A program made the translations under genes and the position numbers. Shown here in pieces: positions 32,612-61,152 of a stretch of 64,000 nt of DNA (the first letter of the stretch is position 1; every line of letters begins with the position of its first letter). A model generated the notes under the pieces. That model saw nothing but the letters and a program-made list of their open reading frames with translations, had not been told where the DNA came from and did not search any database. The stretch is taken from positions 1-64,000 of the forward strand of contig CBDBLV010000001.1 of assembly GCA_965207225.1 (NCBI GenBank), read 5' to 3'. The stretch comes from Dehalococcoidia bacterium (GTDB lineage Bacteria; Chloroflexota; Dehalococcoidia; Plut-88900).

Positions 32612-34486
32612 CTACTGCGCGGGCTCGTACCACCCCGACCCGAATAACAGCCCATCGTGGAGCACGGCCCACGTGTGCTTCTGCTCTTCCTCCCCCGACT
32701 CCGGGTTCCGGATGACGTATTCCACCCATTTCCCGGCATCTGTAGCCGACCGTAGATCATCGCCGTAGAAATATCCCGTGGCGTCGAATCGGAGGTTTGG
32801 GTCTCGGAACCTGAGGGCCGGATTGTAGTGAGATATCGTGTAACCTTCATCGTTGATAATGAACACGTACCACTGGTCGTCTATGCTCTCCTCAGTATTG
32901 TAGTACTCGACCGTCCGCTCAAGCCCGACCGCGTTGTACAGGTTTATCGCCGACTGCACGAAGGCCTGCGTGTAGGCCGTATTGTCCGACTTCATGGGCC
33001 CGGGCTCGTACCACCCCGACCCGAATATGAGTCCATCGTGCTCTACGAGCCATGAATGCTTGGTTTCCACCACCCCGGACTCGGGATTCGCGAAAGTGTA
33101 ATCGAACCATGCGCCGGTCTCCGAGGCGGAGGCGAGGATCGAGGCCCCAACAGGGTAACCGTTGGCCCCCACCACCTCCGATTCGTGCATGCCCACCAGC
33201 CCGGGATTGGCGGCAATCGCCACTTTGTAGCCGTTCTCGTCGATAATGAACACGTACCACTGACCGTCTATGCTCTCAGGCGTGTTGTAGTACGCAACGG
33301 TGTCTTTGAAGCCGATGGCGTCGTATAGATTTATCGCCGACTGCACGAAAGCCTGCGTGTAGGCCGCATTGTCGGACTTGCTGGGCCCCGGCTCGTACCA
33401 CCCCGACCCGAAAGTAAGCCCGTCATGCCTTACCATCCACGAATGCTTTGCCTGGATACCGCCCGTGGCCGGGTTGGGGAACGTGTAGCTGAACCACTCG
33501 CCATCCTCGTGGGCCACCGCTGCTACGGCGTCTCCGGCTGGGAAGTTGTTGGGCCCGACAGCCGCGGAGACCGGCCCGCCGACCAGGCTCGGGTCTGGGG
33601 CATAGGCGATGAAGTTGTCGTCCCCGTCCAGGATGAACGTGTACCACTGCCCGTCAATGCTGTCCTGCGTGTTGTAGTAGGCGACGGTGTCTTCTAGCCC
33701 GACTGCATCGTACAGGCCGATAGCCTGCTGCACGAATGCCTGGGTATAGGCGGGCTGGTCCGACTTGCTGGGCCCGGGCTCGTACCACCCCGAGGCAAAC
33801 AGAAGTCCATCGTACTCAACGGCCCAGGTGTGTTTTCGCTCCACGGCCCCTGTGCTTGGATTTCGGAAGCCGTAGGAATACCAGGTCCCATCTTCGTCTG
33901 CTACCGCCGCCACTGCTTTGCCCGCCGGGAAATTATTGTTCGGCCCTGGTATTTCATCCACCCTCTGGCCCACTAGTGCTGGATTGGCCGCCTGCGCAAT
34001 CATCAAGCCGTCCCTGTCGGCGATGAACACATACCACTGTCCATCGACGCTCTCCGGCCTGTTGTAGTAATCAACAATCGCGTCCAGCCCCTCGGCCTTG
34101 TACATATCGATGGCCTGCTTCACGTAGTACTGGGTGTACTCCTCGACCTCGTACCTGGCGGGCGCGGGTTCCGGCGCACCGTCCCCTATGGCTGCGCCCA
34201 ACCCGGCTCCAAACAGCTCCAGGAACCCCGAGACAAGTTCCTCGTCCACCTCCGTCATTTCCCCCGACGAACCTTGTGGCCCTGCCGGCCCCTGTGGCCC
34301 TTGCTCTCCGGCTGGCCCTTGTTCTCCCTGTGGGCCTTGCGCGCCCCGGGGCCCCTGCTGACCCGCCGGGCCCCGAGCCCCGGGTGGCCCCTGCTCCCCC
34401 GCAGGCCCCGCATCCCCCGCGCAAGCCACCGCCGCCAGGACCAGCGCAATTACCAGAGTAGCTGCGATAAGAATACGCATTATCAA
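32612..34486 (-). CDS. Lipoprotein with collagen-like Gly-X-Y repeat and four single-Cache-like domains
   Basis: LAAVAC lipobox; [16 protein letters not shown]...; four repeats of YYN..ES(I/V)DGQWYVFI...KH(S/T)W...[11 protein letters not shown]. Confidence 0.85.
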
Positions 34487-36520: not shown

Positions 36521-36667
36521 CCCTCCATTTCCGACTCCGATCGGGAGTCCACCCCCCGGGGCGGCGGGCCCGCTCACCCTGAGGCCACTCGAAGGGTCGA
36601 GCGGGGGGGTGGTCCACGCAGTGTTTATCCGTCACACCCTTCGACAACTGACCACACCTGCTCCACT

Positions 36668-36698
36668 GTCATTCCGACGCCCCGCGAGGAATCTGGGG
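36668..36698 (+). repeat. Palindromic repeat family B (GTCATTCCGATGCCCCGCGAGGAATCTGGGG)
   Basis: Related copies near 1281-1306 (rc), 2490-2512 (rc), 32545, 37625, 57317, 60089, 60969; mostly at gene 3' ends. Confidence 0.8.
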
Positions 36699-36872
36699 TG
36701 GGGATGTTACTGCCCCCAGTACTGAACTAGAGGCCCACGTGGGTGCCTTGCACCCACGTGGGCCTCTGTTCTTCTCTCCCCCTCTCCCTCAATGGCCCTG
36801 AGGGAGAGGGGGACCAAGGGGGAGAGGGTTCCCCTCCCGGGCAGCGGAGGGAGGCGGGGGTGCCACCCCCCA

Positions 36873-37544
36873 TCACACCGGCCACCTCTCCAGGCTGTAG
36901 CACATCTCCCAGAACAGGTACTCGTACCGGCTGCTCGTCAGGAACGCCTCCTCCATCAACCCCCTCGTCGCCGCCGATCCCTCCCTCCCCAGCCTGTCCA
37001 CCAGCTCCCGACACTTCCGCACCTCCTCCCCGTACTCAGGGTCCGTGTACTGCTTTATCCACCTCACGTACAGCTCGTCCTCGGGCATCCCCCTCTCCTC
37101 CAGCGACTTCCCCATCTCGTAGTAGCCCCAGAAGCACGGGAGAAGGGCCGCAATAATCGCCTCGAAAGGCTCCGTCGACGCAGTCCGCATCAGGAAGTCC
37201 GTGTACGCCTGGCACGTCGGCGCCTTCTTCTCCGCCACCAGCTCCTCCACCCCGATCCCGAAGTCCCGGGCATAGGACCTGTGCAGCGCCATCTCCTTGT
37301 TCAGTGTGTAGTCAGCGTGGAACGTCAACCATGCAGAAAGCTCGGGCCCCGGGGCCTTCGCCGCCGCCAGGTTGTACACCCGAGCGTAGTCGATCAGGTA
37401 CAGGTAGTCCTGCCTCACCCAGAACTTCAACCTCTCCACCTCTAAAGTCCCGTCCCCCACCCCCCTCACAAACGGATGATTGCGCTGCGCCTCCCATATC
37501 GAGTCCCCCAGCGCCCTTAAATGATCGCTGAATCTTTCCTGCAA
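36873..37544 (-). CDS. tenA: Thiaminase II / TenA family
   Basis: HPFV..GTL..FWVRQDYLYL, LLPCFWGY, YVRWIKQY, SRYEYLFWEM. Confidence 0.92.
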   Translation of the reverse strand: MQERFSDHLRALGDSIWEAQRNHPFVRGVGDGTLEVERLKFWVRQDYLYLIDYARVYNLAAAKAPGPELSAWLTFHADYTLNKEMALHRSYARDFGIGVEELVAEKKAPTCQAYTDFLMRTASTEPFEAIIAALLPCFWGYYEMGKSLEERGMPEDELYVRWIKQYTDPEYGEEVRKCRELVDRLGREGSAATRGLMEEAFLTSSRYEYLFWEMCYSLERWPV

Positions 37545-37735
37545 CTTGCTTCCTCCGGTCGAATTCTTCGTCAGTGTTCTGTTCAAGTAAATTCTAACCC
37601 GCTTTTCCCCCGCCCCGGACCCCTGTCATTCCGATGCCCCGCGATGTCGTGGATGGGCCCAGTGCGTGAATCGGGGGCTGGGCCTCCCATTCCTCACTCC
37701 TTCACTCTCTACTACAACCATGCTATTATTGCCTC

Positions 37736-38122
37736 ATGACAATCACATCAGCCGACCCCACCCCCATCTTCGCCGACGCGCTCCAAATGCAGGAAGCCGC
37801 CCTCCGGCGCATGGCTGCCGGAGACATACGTGATGCCTCCGACAAAGCCTGGTGCGCCGCCAAGCGCGCCACCGATGCCCTCATCCTAGCCCGCACTGGT
37901 CAATTACCCCCCAAGTCCCCCGACACCACCCGCTCCCTCCTCAGGCTTGCTGAGGACAATGCCGAATTACGCGGACTACTGGGAGACTACACCACAAGGC
38001 GTGACGTTCTCCACGGAGACTGCTTCTACACTGGCCTCTGTGAGCCCGCAGACGCAATTGAACGACTCATCCGGGAAACAGCGGACTTCATCCAAGACGC
38101 CCAAACCCTCGCCCACGCTTAA
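37736..38122 (+). CDS. PaREP1/HEPN-like helical protein
   Basis: GDIRDASDKAWCAA...LHGDCFY motif. Confidence 0.65.
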   Translation: MTITSADPTPIFADALQMQEAALRRMAAGDIRDASDKAWCAAKRATDALILARTGQLPPKSPDTTRSLLRLAEDNAELRGLLGDYTTRRDVLHGDCFYTGLCEPADAIERLIRETADFIQDAQTLAHA

Positions 38123-38377
38123 CCCCCAACTCGTCATTCCGGCCCCCGGGCCGGCTGAAAGTGCGCCTCTGGCGTGAATCCACCCCCTTCCCCCAGTACC
38201 GAACTAGAGGCCGACGTGGGTGTAGCGCACCCACGTCGGCCTCTGTTCTTCTCTTCCCCTCTCCCTTATAGGCCCTAAGAGCCTGCCCCGAGTCCCTCGA
38301 GGGGGAGAGGGGGATCAAGGGGGTGAGGGTTCCCCTATGGGGTCGAGGGGCATCCCCCCAAAGCCGCACATTTGCTC

Positions 38378-38406
38378 TTGACACACCTGTCCGACCGTAC
38401 TATCAT
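38378..38406 (+). promoter_or_regulatory. sigma70-type promoter for ncRNA copy 2
   Basis: TTGACA-17 nt-TATCAT. Confidence 0.75.
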
Positions 38407-38412
38407 GTTCTG

Positions 38413-38960
38413 CGTTCGGTCGAATACAAACTCACGTCATCAAAGGAGGAACCAAAAACCTAGGGAAGCCCACCCGACCCCACGGGTCCCGTGCCCCTTC
38501 CCCATCCATCCAGGCGATGGAAGGTCCATCTACTCTACGCGGTACACCCCTTTCCAGGGGCCTCTACCGAATCGGTGCTCCCTATCTTGGGACGCCTATG
38601 TCGCTGGCAATGGCTTGCCGGCGAAATTCTAACGGCCCGGCGTTACCGGGATTAGGGCCTCAGAGCCCCTACGCGGCTCCACTGCCGTCACCGTCCGCGG
38701 ACTCCGTTCCGCCCATGACGGTATCGAGCCGAATGCTGTCCCGCTCAGCGGTCGAGCGCTGATACGGAGAACAGAAGTCCCCGCGCAGAGACACCCTCGA
38801 CAACGGCAAGTCTCCCAAGGCATGCGTGAAGGGAAAGGCAGGACAACCGCCGATGCCACCAGCGTCGGCGTAGGTGCCATCGAGGTCCTGCATCCGAGTC
38901 CCGGACCTTCCATCGCCGACCCAAAACCCAACAGGCAGAACAAAATGCAAACCCAAACCC
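38413..38960 (+). ncRNA. Candidate large structured ncRNA, copy 2 (family unrecognised)
   Basis: Perfect 15-bp closing stem 38513-38527/38903-38917; many internal hairpins; homology and covariation with copy 1. Confidence 0.65.
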
Positions 38961-39130
38961 CACAACACAACATCCCCTCCCTTCCCCCCAGTACTGAACT
39001 AGAGGCAGAGGTCGGCGCTGTTCTTCTCTCCCCCTCTCCCTTCCCCCCAGTACCAAACTAGAGGCAAGCGCCTGCGCCATGGCGCAGGCGCTTGCCTCTG
39101 TTTTTTCTTCCCCCTCTCCCTCAGGGCCAT

Positions 39131-40399
39131 TGTATAGACCGGGGACATAGGTTACACATGTTCGGAGACATAGGTTACACCATTAGGCATAGCGATTCTG
39201 TAAGAGGAGGGTTTCTATGCCATGGAAGGTTGGAACGGTCATGTCTCAACGGGAAGAGTTTGTGGTCCTGGCCCAGTCCGAGGGTGTGAACATGAGTGAG
39301 CTGTGTCTGCGCAGCGGGATCAGCCGTAAGACCGGCTACAAGTGGCTGAGACGATACCTGGAAGGGGGTAAGGGGAGTCTGGAAGACCTTTCCAAGTGTC
39401 CCCATCACTCGCCGAACCGCACCAGCGCCGATATGGAGCAACTGGTAATAGACCTTCGAAGGGAGTTCCCCACCAAGGGGGGTCATGTGCTGGCCAAGAT
39501 GCTCAAGGACAGAGGGTACGGCGGTGTACCGGCCAAGAGCACCGTCACAGCCATCCTCAGTCGACATGGACTTATAGAGCCGGCCCAGAGCCTCAAGCAC
39601 AAGCCCTACCGCCGCTTTGAGCACCCCCGGCCCAACGACCTTTGGCAGATGGACTTCAAGGGACATATACCCATGTCCAGTGGTGGAAGATGTCACCCTC
39701 TGACGATCCTCGATGATCACTCCAGGTTCTCCCTGGCTGTAAGGGCTTGCCCAGATGAGAAGACTCCCACGGTCCGTGGCCACCTCACCTCTGTATTCCG
39801 CCGTTACGGCATGCCCGTCACTATGCTGGTAGACAACGGCGCCCCCTGGGGCCACGACCTCTACCATCCCTTCACGCCCTTGACCGTCTGGTTGCTGCAA
39901 CTGGGAGTCAGGGTGATCCACAGCAGACCCCACCACCCCCAGACTCTCGGCAAGCTTGAACGCTTCCACAAGTCCCTCAAGAGCGAACTGCTCCAGGGAA
40001 GCATCTACACAGACCTGCACCACTGCCAGGGCAGCTTCGACACCTGGAGAGACTTCTACAACCTCCAGCGTCCTCACCATGCCCTGGACCTCAATACCCC
40101 CTCCAGCCGATACACCCCCAGCCCCCGGCCCTTCCCCGAGGTCCTGCCTGCCATCGAGTACGACACCAATGACCAGGTGCGCAAGGTCGACGTCAACGGC
40201 CGCATATGGTTCAAGGGCAGAACCTTTAAGGTGGGGAAAGCCTTCCGAAGAAAGTGTGTCGCCCTTAGACCCGGGTCCAAAGACGGCACGTGGAAAGTCT
40301 TCTTCTCCGTACAACCCATTGCTACCATAGATCTAAGTAAGTAGGAAATGTGTTACCTATCTCCCCGAACAACTGTTACCCTTCTCCCCGGTCTATACA
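39131..40399 (+). mobile_element. IS481-family insertion sequence
   Basis: TGT...ACA ends; IR TGTATAGACCGGGGA/TCCCCGGTCTATACA; subterminal GACATAGGTTACAC repeats. Confidence 0.92.
39217..40344 (+). CDS. IS481-family transposase
   Basis: MPWK..., GISRKTGYKW HTH, LWQMDFKG, ILDDHSRF, DNG, PQTLGKLERFH. Confidence 0.95.
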   Translation: MPWKVGTVMSQREEFVVLAQSEGVNMSELCLRSGISRKTGYKWLRRYLEGGKGSLEDLSKCPHHSPNRTSADMEQLVIDLRREFPTKGGHVLAKMLKDRGYGGVPAKSTVTAILSRHGLIEPAQSLKHKPYRRFEHPRPNDLWQMDFKGHIPMSSGGRCHPLTILDDHSRFSLAVRACPDEKTPTVRGHLTSVFRRYGMPVTMLVDNGAPWGHDLYHPFTPLTVWLLQLGVRVIHSRPHHPQTLGKLERFHKSLKSELLQGSIYTDLHHCQGSFDTWRDFYNLQRPHHALDLNTPSSRYTPSPRPFPEVLPAIEYDTNDQVRKVDVNGRIWFKGRTFKVGKAFRRKCVALRPGSKDGTWKVFFSVQPIATIDLSK

Positions 40400-40454
40400 A
40401 TGGCCCTGAGGGAGAGGGGGATCAAGGGGGTGAGGGTTCCCCCCCGCACCAGGC

Positions 40455-51014: not shown

Positions 51015-51091
51015 GCCCCTATCGTCTAGCGGCCTAGGACACCGCCCTTTCAAGGCGGAGATCACGGGTTCGAATCCCGTTGGGGGCACCA
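51015..51091 (+). tRNA. tRNA-Glu (TTC)
   Basis: Cloverleaf GCCCCTA/TGGGGGC, anticodon arm CCGCC-CTTTCAA-GGCGG, TTCGAAT T-loop, encoded CCA. Confidence 0.97.
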
Positions 51092-54861: not shown

Positions 54862-55230
54862 GGGACCCTGCAGCTTGGCGCCACATGCAAGATGCTGACA
54901 CCCCACCCCTGCCATCCCCGAAAAGTCGGAAATCAATCTCTCCCCGAGTACTGAACTAGAGGGAGCCGCATGGGCGCAGCCCATGCGGCTCCCTCTGTTT
55001 TTCTCTCCCCCTCTCCCTTACAGGCCCTAAGGGAGAGGGGGATCAAGGGGGTGAGGGTTCCCCCGGGGAAGCGGGGATCTCCCCGCCCCAATGTGCCATC
55101 TCCCCCTTGCCCCCACCCTACCCCTCCCGCTATTGTAACCACCATCAAATCCCACCCCTCCCTTCACCCCCGAACCAACTAAAAGGCCTTTCCTCAAACA
55201 ATCAAAATCCCCGCCCGTAAGGAGACACCG

Positions 55231-56427: not shown

Positions 56428-56471
56428 CATCTGAAATAGACTGTATCCACCAAGAGACAGGAGATGGTGAC

Positions 56472-57305
56472 ATGTTCGTAAGAGCCGTAGACCAGCTCGC
56501 AGGTACCGACAAGGAAGTCAATTGGCAGGACGGAGACCTCTGGCTCCGAGCCGCCCGACTCGTTACCAAGGCCGACCTCGTAGGCTTCTCCCTCGCCGAC
56601 GTACGGCTCTCCGCAGGATGGGAGATCGACTGTCACTACAAGCACCACATAGAAGCCAGCTTCGTCATCTCCGGCAGCGCAACGGTTACGGAGTACGCCA
56701 CCGGCAACAGCTGGGACGTTGGCCCCGGCGACCTGTACGTCGTGGGGCCGAAGGACAAGCACCACGTCTCGACCAGGACCGAGTTGCACGGCGTCACCGT
56801 CTTCAACCCTGCCCTGGTTGGCAACGAAAAGCCCGACGAGGACGGCGCATACCCGCCTTCCGGCGAAGTACCCCCGGCCTGGGCTGGTGAGTCGGGCCGG
56901 ACGATGTTCCTGAAGCGGGTCGCCGACACCCGCGTGGTCGGCGTCAGCTACGGCGCCGCCAGGGCCTACCGATACCTCACCCAGGCCGACGAGTGCGGCT
57001 TCACCATCTCCACCCCCCGCTCCCCCGCCGGCGACGGCATCGTCCTCCACTACAAGAACCACGTGGAAGCCAACTACGTGATCGAGGGAGAGGGCACCGC
57101 CGAAGACCTGACTACCGGCGAGAAATGGGACCTCTACCCGGGCTCCATGTACTTCGTCGGCCCGAAGGACAGGCACCAGGTCAACACCCACACCGGCTTC
57201 TACCTTCTCAGCGTCTTCAACCCGCCCCTCGTCGGCGACGAGACCCACGACTCCGAGGGCGGCTACCCCTACACCGGCCCCCTCCCCGAAGCCTGGAGAC
57301 CCTAA
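56472..57305 (+). CDS. Tandem double EctC (ectoine synthase-type cupin) protein, paralog 1
   Basis: MFVR..; HYKHHIEA, GDLYVVGPKDKH, VFNPALVGNE..DEDGAYP motif set present twice; 277 aa. Confidence 0.88.
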   Translation: MFVRAVDQLAGTDKEVNWQDGDLWLRAARLVTKADLVGFSLADVRLSAGWEIDCHYKHHIEASFVISGSATVTEYATGNSWDVGPGDLYVVGPKDKHHVSTRTELHGVTVFNPALVGNEKPDEDGAYPPSGEVPPAWAGESGRTMFLKRVADTRVVGVSYGAARAYRYLTQADECGFTISTPRSPAGDGIVLHYKNHVEANYVIEGEGTAEDLTTGEKWDLYPGSMYFVGPKDRHQVNTHTGFYLLSVFNPPLVGDETHDSEGGYPYTGPLPEAWRP

Positions 57306-57466
57306 GTGTTCCCACTGTCATTCCGATGCCCCGCGAGGAATCTGGGGTGGTGTCCAATCCCCTCTCCCTCGACGGGAGAGGGCCAGAGCCTGTCCCGAGT
57401 CCCCGAGGGAGTGAGGGTGATCCCGAGGCGCGGTTACGAAAACCATATAACCGGAGGTGACACGAT

Positions 57467-58300
57467 ATGTTCGTAAGGACCATTGACCAGCTCGCAGGTT
57501 CCGACAAAGAAGTGAACTGGAGGGACGGAGACCTGTGGCTCAAGGCCGTACGTCTGGTCACAAAGACCGACGGCGCAGGCTTCTCCCTCGCCGACGTCCG
57601 GCTCTCCGCAGGCTGGGAGATCGACTGCCACTACAAGCACCACATTGAAGTCAGCATCGTCCTCTCCGGCAGCGCAACGGTTACGGAGTACGCCACCGGC
57701 AAAAGCTGGGAGGTCGGGCCGGGCGACGTGTACGTGGTCGGCCCGAAGGACAAGCACCACGTATCGACGAAAACCGAGCTTCACGGTGTCACAGTCTTCA
57801 ACCCCGCCCTCGTCGGCACCGAGACCCCTGACGAGGACGGCGCATACCCGCCTTCCGGCGAGGTCCCCCCGGCCTGGGCAGGCGAGTCTGGACGGACCAT
57901 GATGGTAAAGAGGCCCGAGGACGCCCAGTCAGTCGGCGTCCGGGGCACGGGCGCCACCGCCTCCCGGTATCTCACCCAGGCCGACCAGTGCGGCGTCACC
58001 GTATCCATGCCCCGCTCTTCCGAGGGCCACGGCAAGGAGCTCTGGTACCAGAACCACGTCGAGGCTAACTACGTTGTCGAAGGCCAGGGATCCGTCGAGG
58101 ACCTGAACACCGGCGAAAAGTGGGCCTTGGCCCCCGGTTCCATGTACTTCGTCGGGCCGAAGGACAGGCACCTCATGAGCTTCGACACCGCATTCTCCCT
58201 CATCAGCGTCTTCAACCCGCCCCTCGTCGGCAACGAGACCCACGATGACCTCGGCGGCTATCCCCCCACCGGCCCCCTCCCCGAAGCCTGGAGACCGTAG
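57467..58300 (+). CDS. Tandem double EctC protein, paralog 2
   Basis: Same motifs twice; 277 aa. Confidence 0.88.
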   Translation: MFVRTIDQLAGSDKEVNWRDGDLWLKAVRLVTKTDGAGFSLADVRLSAGWEIDCHYKHHIEVSIVLSGSATVTEYATGKSWEVGPGDVYVVGPKDKHHVSTKTELHGVTVFNPALVGTETPDEDGAYPPSGEVPPAWAGESGRTMMVKRPEDAQSVGVRGTGATASRYLTQADQCGVTVSMPRSSEGHGKELWYQNHVEANYVVEGQGSVEDLNTGEKWALAPGSMYFVGPKDRHLMSFDTAFSLISVFNPPLVGNETHDDLGGYPPTGPLPEAWRP

Positions 58301-58371
58301 CAAGAAAATAGAGAGTCGGGGTCGAATAGGTCCGCACGCCAGTAATAGACAAATAACCTGGAGGTAAGAGG

Positions 58372-59205
58372 ATGTTCGTAAGAAGGCTGGAAGAGCTCAA
58401 CGGTACCCCAAATGAAATGATCAGGATGGCCGGCGAAGGACAACTCCATTCCCGACGCATCCTGACCAAAGCCGACGGTTGCGGCTTCTCCCTTTCCGAT
58501 GTGCTCGCTGCCACCGGCATGTCCATCGACCTCTGGTACAAGCACCAGGTCGAGGCAAACCTGATTGTCACGGGGGAACTGGAGGTCACCGACCTGTCCA
58601 ACAACGCGAAGTGGCTGCTTGGCGCCGGGGACGCATACATGGTCGGGCCTAAGGACAGGCACCGCATCACGGCAAAGAGCGACGTCCATCTCGTCAGCGT
58701 CTTCTGTCCGCCGGTGCTCGGCAACGAGAGGCACGACGAAGACGGCTCCTTCCCCCCGACCGGCGACATCCCGCCTGCCTGGCAAGGAGAATCGGGGCGG
58801 ACCATGTTCATCAAACGGCTGGCCGACACCCGTGTCGTGCGCATCGGCCATGACAGGGCAAACGCGTACAGGTACCTGACCCAGGAAGACGGATGTGGAT
58901 TCACCGTATCCACGCCCCGGGGCGAGGGAGGCAAGAGCATAGTTCTCTGGTACCAGAACCACGTGGAGGCCAACTATATCCTGGAGGGTGAAGGCACGGT
59001 GGAGGACAAGTCGACCGGGGAGACGTGGGACCTGGCCCCCGGCACGGTGTATGTAGTAGGCCCCAAGGACCGGCACCAGCTTTACTCCGAGAAGGGTTTC
59101 TACTTGCTCAGCATCTTCAACCCGCCCCTCGTCGGCGATGAAACCCACGACGAGCTCGGCGGCTATCCCCCAAACGGCCCCATCCCCGAGGCCTGGAGAC
59201 CGTAA
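58372..59205 (+). CDS. Tandem double EctC protein, paralog 3
   Basis: WYKHQVEAN / WYQNHVEANY; 277 aa. Confidence 0.88.
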   Translation: MFVRRLEELNGTPNEMIRMAGEGQLHSRRILTKADGCGFSLSDVLAATGMSIDLWYKHQVEANLIVTGELEVTDLSNNAKWLLGAGDAYMVGPKDRHRITAKSDVHLVSVFCPPVLGNERHDEDGSFPPTGDIPPAWQGESGRTMFIKRLADTRVVRIGHDRANAYRYLTQEDGCGFTVSTPRGEGGKSIVLWYQNHVEANYILEGEGTVEDKSTGETWDLAPGTVYVVGPKDRHQLYSEKGFYLLSIFNPPLVGDETHDELGGYPPNGPIPEAWRP

Positions 59206-59229
59206 ACTACAGATTCCGGAGGCAACCCC

Positions 59230-60063
59230 ATGTTCGTAAGAAGAGTCGAAGACCTGGCAGGCACCGACAAACAGATGGTCCGAACTGAAGGGGCCACGAG
59301 GTTACAGTCCACCCGACTCCTCACCCAGTCCGACGGCTGCGGCTTCTCCGTCTCTGACGTCCAGGTCTCCGCAGGTTCCACCGCCGACCTCTGGTACAAG
59401 AACCACGTCGAAGGCAACCTCATTATCTCGGGAGAAATGGAACTGACCGACCTTACCAGCGGCCAGAGCTGGGAACTGGGCGCCGGAGACCTCTACGTCG
59501 TCGGTCCCTGGGACCGGCACCGCATCACCACCACTACCGACCTGCATGCGGTCAGCGTTTTCAACCCCGCCACCCTCGGCGGCGAGCGCCACGACGCGGA
59601 CGGCTCCTACCCTCCCACCGGCGACATTCCACCTGCCTGGCAGGGTGAATCGGGCCGCACAATGATCGTAAAGCGACTCTCGGACACCAGGGTCGTCCCC
59701 ATAGGGCATGGCCGCACCAACGCCTACCGCTACCTACTCCATGATGACGAATGTGGCTTCACCATCTCCACCCCCCGGGCCCCGGGAGGCAAAAGCATCG
59801 TTCTCTGGTACCAGAACCACGTCGAGGCCAACTACATCCTGGATGGCGAGGGTGCCGTCGAAGACGTAACCACCGGCGAAAGATGGGACCTCGCTCCCGG
59901 CACCCTATACGTCGTAGGCCCCAAGGACCGCCACTTCATCGAGTCCGAAAACGGCCTGTACGTCATGAGCATCTTCAACCCCCCAATCTACGGCCACGAG
60001 ACCCACGACGAACAGGGCACCTACACACCGTCGGGCCCCATCCCCGAAGCGTGGGAACCCTAA
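59230..60063 (+). CDS. Tandem double EctC protein, paralog 4
   Basis: WYKNHVEGN / WYQNHVEANY; 277 aa. Confidence 0.88.
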   Translation: MFVRRVEDLAGTDKQMVRTEGATRLQSTRLLTQSDGCGFSVSDVQVSAGSTADLWYKNHVEGNLIISGEMELTDLTSGQSWELGAGDLYVVGPWDRHRITTTTDLHAVSVFNPATLGGERHDADGSYPPTGDIPPAWQGESGRTMIVKRLSDTRVVPIGHGRTNAYRYLLHDDECGFTISTPRAPGGKSIVLWYQNHVEANYILDGEGAVEDVTTGERWDLAPGTLYVVGPKDRHFIESENGLYVMSIFNPPIYGHETHDEQGTYTPSGPIPEAWEP

Positions 60064-60308
60064 CCGCAATCCGCTCCCGCCGCCCACTGTCATCCCGATG
60101 CCCCGCGAGGGATCTGGGGTGAGGGTGCTCCCCTTCTCTTTTCTCCCCCTCCCCCCTGATAATTCAATAAAACAGGGCGGGTGGGCGGGACTGCAATTAC
60201 TCCTTAGGGGTTGGGAGGGGCACCCCCTCCCCACATTGCAACCCCACCCCCCATTTGCTAAGCTTTCACCCACTATTTCCCCAAGCCCACCACCCTTGGA
60301 GGGACGCC

Positions 60309-60947: not shown

Positions 60948-61152
60948 TCTCCTCCTGCTGTCTCCCCTGTCATCCCGATGCCCCGCGAGGGATCTGGGGC
61001 GGGATCCCATCCCCTCTCCCTCCTTCCTCCCGTAGGGGCGACCGGCTGGTCGCCCTCCCCGCAGTGGTCCCGCTCATCGTGAGCGGAGTCGAAGGGTCGA
61101 GCGGAGGGGTGGCCCACGTACACAACCTACCGAGATCCCCGGAGGCCCCTGA

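Follow-up and report, generated by a model that had tools for sequence, protein, structure and literature searches.

What is the unit at positions 38378-39110 of this stretch of Dehalococcoidia DNA, where a promoter points into a region with no credible coding sequence? The whole stretch of 64,000 nt is called the window here, positions without a contig name follow its numbering, and the unit is called copy 2. The original prediction took it for a large, promoter-driven, non-coding, highly structured and unrecognised RNA, and for the second copy of a pair. The analysis supports this description of the RNA. A second copy does exist, but the genome in fact carries at least 42 loci of the family. 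Beyond the prediction, the family was found to be dispersed in ~40 copies, to descend from a terminase gene (terL), and mostly to lie upstream of ordinary genes that it faces. The repeated cassette consists of a promoter, a leader, a ~400-nt multi-helix domain and an open tail. It is restricted to one genus, with ~40 copies per genome. The RNA domain descends from an internal piece of terL (codons ~272-412), a gene widespread in Dehalococcoidia. The RNA family is real and unusual; what its fold does, we infer. The genome analysed (G000, 4.03 Mb, contigs C1-C5) was compared with eight sister genomes of the same genus.

The copy 2 unit and its fold

All elements of copy 2 lie on the + strand. 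The promoter TTGACA-17-TATCAT (38378-38406) was the only sigma-70-like site found by a consensus scan within 38150-39200, where shuffled sequence is expected to give 0.3 ± 0.6. It matches the consensus at 11 of 12 positions, which agrees with the near-consensus promoter of the prediction, and represents promoter class A of the family; an identical class A promoter also heads the units at recA and gyrB. Transcription of copy 2 would start near 38413. The leader motif AAGGAGGAACCAAAAACCTAGGGAAGCC (38443-38470), seen in the sequence and in an alignment of 18 copies, is the consensus ribosome-binding sequence of the organism with no start codon after it. Its AAGGAGG lies ~30 nt past the proposed start. 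The leader reads AAGGAGGAACCA, again the consensus, and real genes read AAGGAGGAACCATG with an ATG following. Next comes a helix GGGAAG/CTTCCC around the hairpin ACGGG-TC-CCGT (38463-38502), which is present in both the minimum-energy and the centroid fold; at this site other copies in the alignment carry an insert of 0-200 nt. The two strands of the closing stem P1, GGCGATGGAAGGTCC (38513-38527) and GGACCTTCCATCGCC (38903-38917), are complementary at 15 of 15 positions, so the predicted perfect stem holds, and the 3' strand is also supported by covariation. Between them lies the multibranch core (38528-38902), which is colinear with terL codons ~272-412 by nucleotide alignment and nhmmer, shows covariation, and is non-coding here. 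All six elements listed in the prediction are present where it puts them, and the minimum-energy fold contains the hairpins. The conserved A/C-rich tail (…CCAAAACCCAACAG…CCCCACAAC; 38918-38975) is kept across core classes and is predicted to be single-stranded.

Copy 2 is bracketed by two strong intrinsic terminators, both called by a scanner. The downstream one (39059-39110), a 19-bp hairpin resembling repetitive extragenic palindromes (REP-like) followed by TTTTTTCTTC, ends the copy 2 transcript. The upstream one (38205-38245), a REP-like 19-bp hairpin with a T-run, directly precedes the unit and is a probable insulator; a hairpin of this kind, a member of a dispersed repeat family, also lies upstream of the gyrB-associated unit. 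In order, the locus thus reads terminator, copy 2, half a repeat and the 19-bp terminator after the tail, and an IS481-family element (39128-40402). Copy 2 appears to be an atypical, cleanly terminated, gene-less copy that would give a stand-alone RNA of ~0.7 kb.

The predicted absence of a credible open reading frame (ORF) was confirmed. No frame is consistently open across the 18 full copies, and the six local ORFs of copy 2 matched no Pfam family and gave a single PHROG match at E = 0.4. Read in the terL register, copy 2 is interrupted by a stop at codon 38 and by frame offsets, and no ATG, GTG or TTG stands at initiation distance after its Shine-Dalgarno (SD)-like element. The RNA is far more stable than expected by chance. 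Positions 38405-38960 fold at -230.8 kcal/mol, compared with -186.3 ± 5.7 for 100 dinucleotide shuffles (z -7.84; 0 of 100 as stable). The models of Rfam 15, among them OLE, ROOL, GOLLD, raiA, HEARO, group I and II introns, riboswitches and T-box, gave no family at gathering thresholds in the window except a tRNA (51015-51088). At E values up to 10, 40 matches were obtained over 38000-39300, all below the gathering score and none overlapping 38367-38986; they are confined to the flanks (38055-38366 and 38987-39152), where the flanking repeat hairpins lie.

Selection on the fold was analysed in an alignment of 38 element cores from the nine genomes together with two terL segments. RNAalifold gave 74 consensus pairs, 19 of them with double changes. 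Of 2952 cells in these pairs 97.5% are paired, compared with 34-42% when the partners are slid along the alignment. The 19 double-change pairs compare with 5-6 in the slid controls and with 8.0 ± 1.7 in shuffles (0 of 500 reach 19), although the latter control overstates significance since the rows are paralogues and orthologues of common descent. The slid controls are unaffected by common descent, and so is the asymmetry between G-U cells (279) and A-C cells (28), which identifies the + strand as the folded one. Selection therefore acts on the fold of the + strand RNA. The closing stem (helix 1) is paired in 99.1% of cells, and both of its strands were recovered in 79 of 80 further leader loci. 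Its distal half co-varies, GGAAGGTCC/GGACCTTCC in some copies and GGAAAGACGCC/GGCGTCTTCC in others, and its inner 10 bp, GGCGATGGAA/TTCCATCGCC, do not vary in 79 of these 80 loci and recur almost unchanged in terL. Conservation of the fold extends to the copy 2 locus itself. Between copy 2 and its orthologue in the sister genome G005, 48 of 254 unpaired columns differ (18.9%) but 8 of 148 paired ones (5.4%), and five of six changed pairs still pair, so the fold is kept even where there is no gene to lead.

Copy 1 of the original prediction lies at ~347-980 on the - strand by alignment. It has promoter class C, the other subclass of the 5' part of the core and a leader insert of ~85 nt. Over the last 255 nt, the 3' half, it is 91.8% identical to copy 2. 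A second candidate for copy 1, 36800-37600, was rejected; it aligns by chance only and holds a minus-strand ORF. Copy 1 has 85 extra alignment columns, in agreement with the description of copy 2 as a compact form lacking the insert of copy 1, and copy 2, compact and self-contained, is suited as a construct for structure work. The proposal of a scaffold with an exchangeable specificity region did not stand. In the 5'-middle part, copies 1 and 2 represent two separate subclasses of one set of helices; each subclass follows the terL coding sequence colinearly, retains its base pairs through compensatory changes and recurs across species. These helices are not copy-specific guide-like loops. The suggested search for complementary targets was likewise negative for the single-stranded leader and tail, for which the only antisense matches are family copies on the opposite strand.

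The interval ~38442-38934, but not its flanks, is covered by contigs from three metatranscriptome libraries (two studies), whereas the best DNA match covers the flanks. The contigs are 85-99% alike to copy 2 and come from other copies or strains, so their uncovered flanks say nothing on transcript ends. These matches show that RNA or DNA of the family is present in the RNA libraries. Sponge, coral and marine metagenomes, at small shares, are among the labels of the matching samples and were not taken as evidence of habitat.

Descent from terL

Two ~500-aa ORFs of the genome match phrog_5909, and one of them has ~70% nucleotide identity to element cores. These paralogous terL genes lie at C1:233552-235072 and C5:241272-242744 (loci L020 and L021). 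Their identity rests on four TerL PHROGs, matched weakly (E 7.5e-5 to 1.2e-3), and on a neighbouring portal gene (phrog_64, E 2.6e-30), which adjoins one of the two paralogues. The two proteins have no significant Pfam match, PF17289 (Terminase_6C) has none over the genome, and a PDB sequence search with TerL returned no hits. Among 8000 candidates scored, 2871 TerL homologues were obtained at E ≤ 1e-5. Full-length relatives of 457-466 aa with 56-59% identity occur in other Dehalococcoidia, and PF17289 was found in 4 of 120 listed homologues.

The copy 2 core is colinear with terL throughout (56-57.5% nucleotide identity), and nhmmer with this core finds both terL genes (E 2e-24 and 9e-21). 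The link at the protein level is provided by copies of the two most divergent species (G002 and G004), which have SD and ATG and an open frame. Their frames match residues 272-412 of the 507-aa TerL at E 1e-18 and 3e-27 (37-45% identity over 141 aa), a segment that spans exactly from stem strand to stem strand. The opposite direction of descent, an in-frame insertion of the element into TerL, was ruled out, since homologues from other orders are equally long and can be aligned from end to end. The segment is thus native to TerL, and the element is derived from it.

terL itself carries the closing stem (GACGATGGAAGGTTCC / GGAACC-TCCATCGTC), but the terL segment folds with this stem at z -2.64 only. 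The long stem duplex occurs in terL of 8 of 8 genomes of the genus (-21 to -31 kcal/mol) and at the homologous positions in none of 18 terL genes of other genera, where the amino-acid motifs differ. Compared with both terL genes, the core shares the closing-stem sequence and several inner hairpins. In contrast to them, copy 2 has a broken frame, a far stronger fold (z -7.8 compared with -2.6), and a new leader, tail and promoter.

A graded series of forms is preserved within the genome, consisting of two intact terL genes, two proto-copies (SD and ATG with a TerL-like frame that still evolves as a protein does), five drifted ORF-type copies and ~38 leader-type copies, in which start codon and frame are lost but the fold is retained and has become stronger. 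A tblastn search with the TerL segment gave 13 matches, among them the two terL genes, the two proto-copies at 62% and five loci at 33-46%; it did not detect any of the ~38 copies of the leader type. The proto-copies have no stops (C4:456474-456962 and C5:1617234-1617716) and possess the upstream repeat, a promoter, SD and ATG, and the start 'MSRISL.RPR' that the copies of G002 and G004 show. At their loci (C4:456243-457418 and C5:1617003-1618472) the ORF beginning 'MSRISL.RPR…' is fused to TerL residues ~263-418, and counterparts are present in G007 and G008. The ratio of non-synonymous to synonymous substitution (dN/dS) between proto-copies is 0.28 (11.0 of 357 non-synonymous and 13.0 of 126 synonymous sites changed), close to 0.26 between the terL paralogues; these counts are small, and gene conversion with terL could mimic constraint. 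On the basis of this ratio, the proto-copies may be truncated TerL genes that are translated. Of the 38 aligned cores, 30, including copy 2 and all nine cores from this genome, have one to six stops and frame offsets when read in the terL register. The eight open cores are three copies of G002 and G004 and a tight subfamily of G003 and G006.

TerL is present in 32 of the 41 genomes searched (24 of 33 genera). Each genome of the genus has one to five matches at E ≤ 1e-40, a count that includes TerL-segment copies and not only full-length terL. Across the class the TerL-like family, found in these 24 genera, shows 40-59% identity (mostly 48-59%), constant length and usually a single copy. Such conservation and constant length are unusual for a prophage gene and fit a domesticated module. 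By this comparison, TerL and portal may form such a module, resembling a gene-transfer agent.

Placement upstream of genes and possible role

A whole-genome search with the family sequence gave 95 matches. Single-sequence nhmmer searches with three modules gave 28, 36 and 21 hits, which were merged into the at least 42 loci; both end modules are present in 18 of the 42, referred to as full copies. All 8 other genomes of the genus contain the family, and a search of 32 genomes outside the genus, from 3 further genera of the same family and 29 other families of the class, recovered it from none. When one genome per species is searched, 93 stretches carry the exact leader motif, and the 80 that were listed are all in metagenome-assembled Dehalococcoidia records. 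In the 18 aligned copies, one of three promoter classes is followed by the motif AAGGAGGAACCAAAAACC(Y)(R)GGGAAGCC, the variable insert, a small hairpin, the closing stem, a core in few classes, the second stem strand and the conserved A/C-rich tail. The three promoter classes are common to ~38 units, and the copies are mosaics of modules. A literature search on limited terms found no description of this family, nor of a cassette of such size and fold origin.

The units are not placed at random with respect to genes. Gene-like ORFs were defined by a length of at least 120 aa and a G+C fraction at third codon positions of at least 0.70. The first such ORF downstream runs in the direction of the unit in 31 cases and against it in 5 (one further unit gave no call), compared with 171 and 99 for random points; the orientation of upstream neighbours is unbiased (18 and 17). 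In 32 of 36 units the same-strand ORF starts 38-580 nt past the tail, and all 32 have clear Pfam families. The genes include those for RpoB, GyrB, RecA, NusA, LeuS, a Glu/Gln-tRNA synthetase, an MnmA-type tRNA methyltransferase, peptide deformylase (Def), Lgt, RibF, MoaA, a class 3 FBPase, spermidine synthase and a KatG-like peroxidase. A further 17 encode various hydrolases, oxidoreductases, transporters and other enzymes, and the one behind copy 2 encodes the IS481-family transposase. Terminator-like sites occur in the 330 nt behind the stem in 6 of the 18 full copies in this genome (copies 1 and 2 included) and in 5 of 77 units in relatives, compared with 11 of 300 random windows. Most units are thus unterminated and precede, at a distance of 38-580 nt, a co-oriented gene that is unrelated and often essential; with this placement the family behaves as a dispersed cassette of promoter and structured 5' leader. 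At recA and gyrB no consensus promoter other than that of the unit was found, and the stretch from unit to gene holds no same-strand terminator. Some pairings of unit and gene are old. Synteny is kept for the gyrB unit in G000, G004, G007 and G008, for the leuS unit in G006 and for the Glu/Gln-tRNA synthetase unit in G007.

We lean, on balance, towards the explanation that the terL-derived cassette is a portable promoter with a long structured 5' leader that acts in cis. The unit promoter would drive a transcript through the structured leader into the downstream gene. The 5'-proximal helices and the closed domain would probably protect or control this transcript, by stability against 5'-to-3' decay, by processing or by regulated read-through, and the open A/C-rich tail would probably serve as a spacer ahead of the ribosome-binding site that belongs to the gene. 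RNase J is encoded in the genome (TIGR00649, 561.7 bits at a cut-off of 400; C5:573723-575351). In silico, the GGAGG of the leader has a median probability of being unpaired of 0.125 in the 18 copies (0.05 in copy 2), and the A/C-rich tail of 0.80, compared with 0.45 for whole molecules. With GGAGG predicted to be paired and the tail open, a 5'-proximal helix seems likelier than a bound 30S subunit.

Several observations weigh against this explanation. It gives no account of why a leader should need a 400-nt fold, and the mostly paired GGAGG misfits a simple stabiliser that binds the 30S subunit. In 5 of 36 units the downstream gene is convergent. Copy 2 is no leader itself: it ends at a strong terminator, the same-strand gene beyond is that of the IS481-family transposase, and its orthologue in G005 is directed towards a convergent gene. 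A cis role alone would not account for the conserved fold at this stand-alone copy, and the RNA domain may have an additional role of its own. At locus L013 the downstream gene's own promoter survives past the unit, and at L035/L039 at least a TATAAT box does, so the unit is not necessarily the only promoter. The scans for promoters and terminators report consensus matches only, the shuffle control is inflated by common descent, and the RNA-library contigs, which derive from relatives or other copies, inform on neither strand, ends nor read-through.

The conservation at copy 2 is among the observations that point to a trans-acting structured RNA, a decoy, sponge or scaffold whose domain binds a protein that also recognises the stem in terL mRNA; we regard this as rather unlikely. 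TerL, a regulator or an RNase would be candidate partners, and the gene-facing arrangement would be secondary. The invariant inner 10 bp of the closing stem, shared almost unchanged with terL, suggest sequence-specific recognition, and terL stem and family co-occur in the genus (8 of 8 genomes, against 0 of 18 terL genes elsewhere). The ~40 strong promoters and the RNA-library cover, limited to the unit, fit as well. However, the binding partner consists of candidates only, complementary targets are absent, contig depth is no measure of abundance, and neither the co-oriented downstream bias nor the missing terminators are predicted.

The occupancy of sites also differs between genomes. Three chromosomal sites (L013, L035/L039 and L016) are filled in a relative and empty in G000, and G005 and G007 have a unit beside the orthologue of C2:69287-69618, where G000 has no family locus. 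A direct repeat GTACATGCTTTT is present at the L013 junction, whereas the junctions at L016 and L035/L039 are too diverged for a target duplication to be read. Three independent loci of G003 and G006 have identical unit ends, and syntenic sites can carry different core classes. Together with the module mosaics, these findings would fit a selfish non-autonomous mobile element of which only insertions with an outward promoter survive upstream of essential genes, its fold being kept for propagating master copies or representing DNA hairpins used in mobilisation. We consider this explanation unlikely. The excess of G-U over A-C cells reveals selection on one RNA strand, not on duplex DNA, several unit-gene pairs are old and stable, and target duplications are unreadable at junctions other than L013. 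No transposase-bearing version of the unit was found. One locus with 2.7 kb between leader and stem was considered as an autonomous version and rejected; it is an IS21-type (istA/istB) insertion. A probe for the terminal inverted repeat (TIR) of the IS481-family element, with up to six mismatches, found five genomic sites, of which only the element beside copy 2 lies within 400 nt of an RNA locus; mobilisation of the IS481 type is therefore not supported.

A bolder version of the cis explanation, which we hold to be quite improbable, is that the terL-derived domain is a portable cis-regulatory sensor that ties ~30 host genes to the state of the TerL/portal module. The invariant inner stem common to terL and the co-occurrence in one genus make a trans or sensor role linked to this module possible. 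If so, the inner stem of terL mRNA and of all leaders would be recognised by TerL, a partner protein or an RNase, the expression of core host genes (rpoB, gyrB, recA, nusA, leuS and others) would be re-programmed once the particle genes are induced, and stand-alone RNAs of the copy 2 type would buffer as decoys.

It is very doubtful that the copies are DNA packaging-site mimics, with terL-segment copies as initiation sites for a TerL/portal machine of a prophage or gene-transfer-agent-like kind. The segment derives from a packaging gene, its inner stem is as invariant as expected of a protein-binding inverted repeat, and TerL is found in 32 of the 41 genomes searched across the class. A DNA site, however, needs no promoter, leader or gene-facing orientation, packaging sites usually lie in or near small-terminase genes, and the strand-asymmetric G-U pairs and compensatory changes indicate RNA. 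That copy 2 encodes a truncated TerL nuclease-domain fragment or another small protein is hardly credible: the proto-copies at the root of the family look translated and the terL frame is open in 8 of 38 cores, but copy 2 has its early stop, no start codon, no Pfam or PHROG family and no tblastn match to TerL, and nine of nine G000 cores in the alignment are broken.

Known systems and neighbouring repeats

Several large structured bacterial RNAs are orphans, namely OLE, ROOL, GOLLD, raiA and HEARO/omega-RNA. Like these, the RNA described here is several hundred nt long, multi-branched and supported by covariation, and like HEARO it is multicopy. Unlike them, it matches no Rfam model, is confined to one genus, descends from protein-coding sequence and is mostly the 5' leader of ordinary genes. 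The copy-specific guide end of omega-RNA/HEARO has no counterpart here, as the 5' classes and the 3' tail are conserved and have no targets outside the family. None of the 32 downstream genes encodes an omega-RNA/HEARO-type nuclease; a genome-wide search for TnpB or IscB was not made. With 74 consensus pairs, 19 of them with compensatory changes, the new family joins a short list of large bacterial RNAs.

A review of promoter reuse in prokaryotes (PMC3575422) describes near-identical, putatively mobile promoter regions upstream of many unrelated genes, along with which RNA motifs can travel. Like such mobile promoters and promoter-bearing repeats (Correia, ERIC, REPIN), the cassette faces genes and is present or absent between relatives. 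Similar promoters were found in ~38 units, before 32 unrelated genes and in 8 sister genomes. In contrast to the mobile promoters treated there, the cassette adds a leader of 0.5-0.7 kb, a covariation-supported fold and an origin in phage terminase coding sequence, and neither a transposase nor matching TIRs were found for it.

A second comparison is offered by STAB-SD, the 5' mRNA stabiliser of cry3A in Bacillus thuringiensis, where a long untranslated leader carries an SD-like sequence close to its 5' end (PMC4113751). The cassette resembles it in its own 5'-proximal SD-like sequence, which no start codon follows, and RNase J is encoded in the genome. It differs from STAB-SD in that its GGAGG is predicted to be paired, not free for the 3' end of 16S rRNA, and in that its leader holds a large conserved domain, which STAB-SD lacks.

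The intermediates kept in one genome document how a phage protein-coding piece became a large structured non-coding RNA. This RNA was then dispersed as a promoter-leader cassette before dozens of genes, essential ones included. If the fold controls stability, processing or read-through, a set of housekeeping genes would share one mobile RNA control element.

Insertion sequences lie close to two family members. The IS481-family element after copy 2 encodes a 375-aa transposase (rve, HTH, LZ_Tnp_IS481) and has long TIRs starting TATAGACCGGGGACATAGGTTACAC. It sits in a REP-like palindrome directly after the copy 2 terminator, and G005 lacks it at the corresponding position. Just past the end of the window, a copy is split by the 2.7-kb IS21-type element (C1:66973-70051; istA 530 aa, istB 304 aa), which occupies the usual site of the variable insert of the leader.

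The REP-like modular repeats consist of the 19-bp GC hairpin and T-run (terminator) followed by CCCCTCTCCC…GGGAGAGGGGGAYCAAGGGGGTGAGGGTTCCCC palindromes. They occur at 36710-36840, 38187-38340, 38974-39125, 40398-40445, 54939-55066, 2124-2684 and elsewhere, often flank RNA units, and may be insulators or miniature mobile elements. A dispersed short repeat (…CTGTCATTCCGATGCCCCGCGAGGAATCTGGGG…) lies at 36658-36721, 37606-37644, 57307-57370, 60079-60142 and 60959-61022 and also adjoins RNA units in G003 and G006. Longer tandem or dispersed repeats, apparently inside coding regions, are present at 56469-60013 (direct repeats of ~414-995 nt) and at 32617-33889 (387-nt units); they probably encode repeat-domain proteins.

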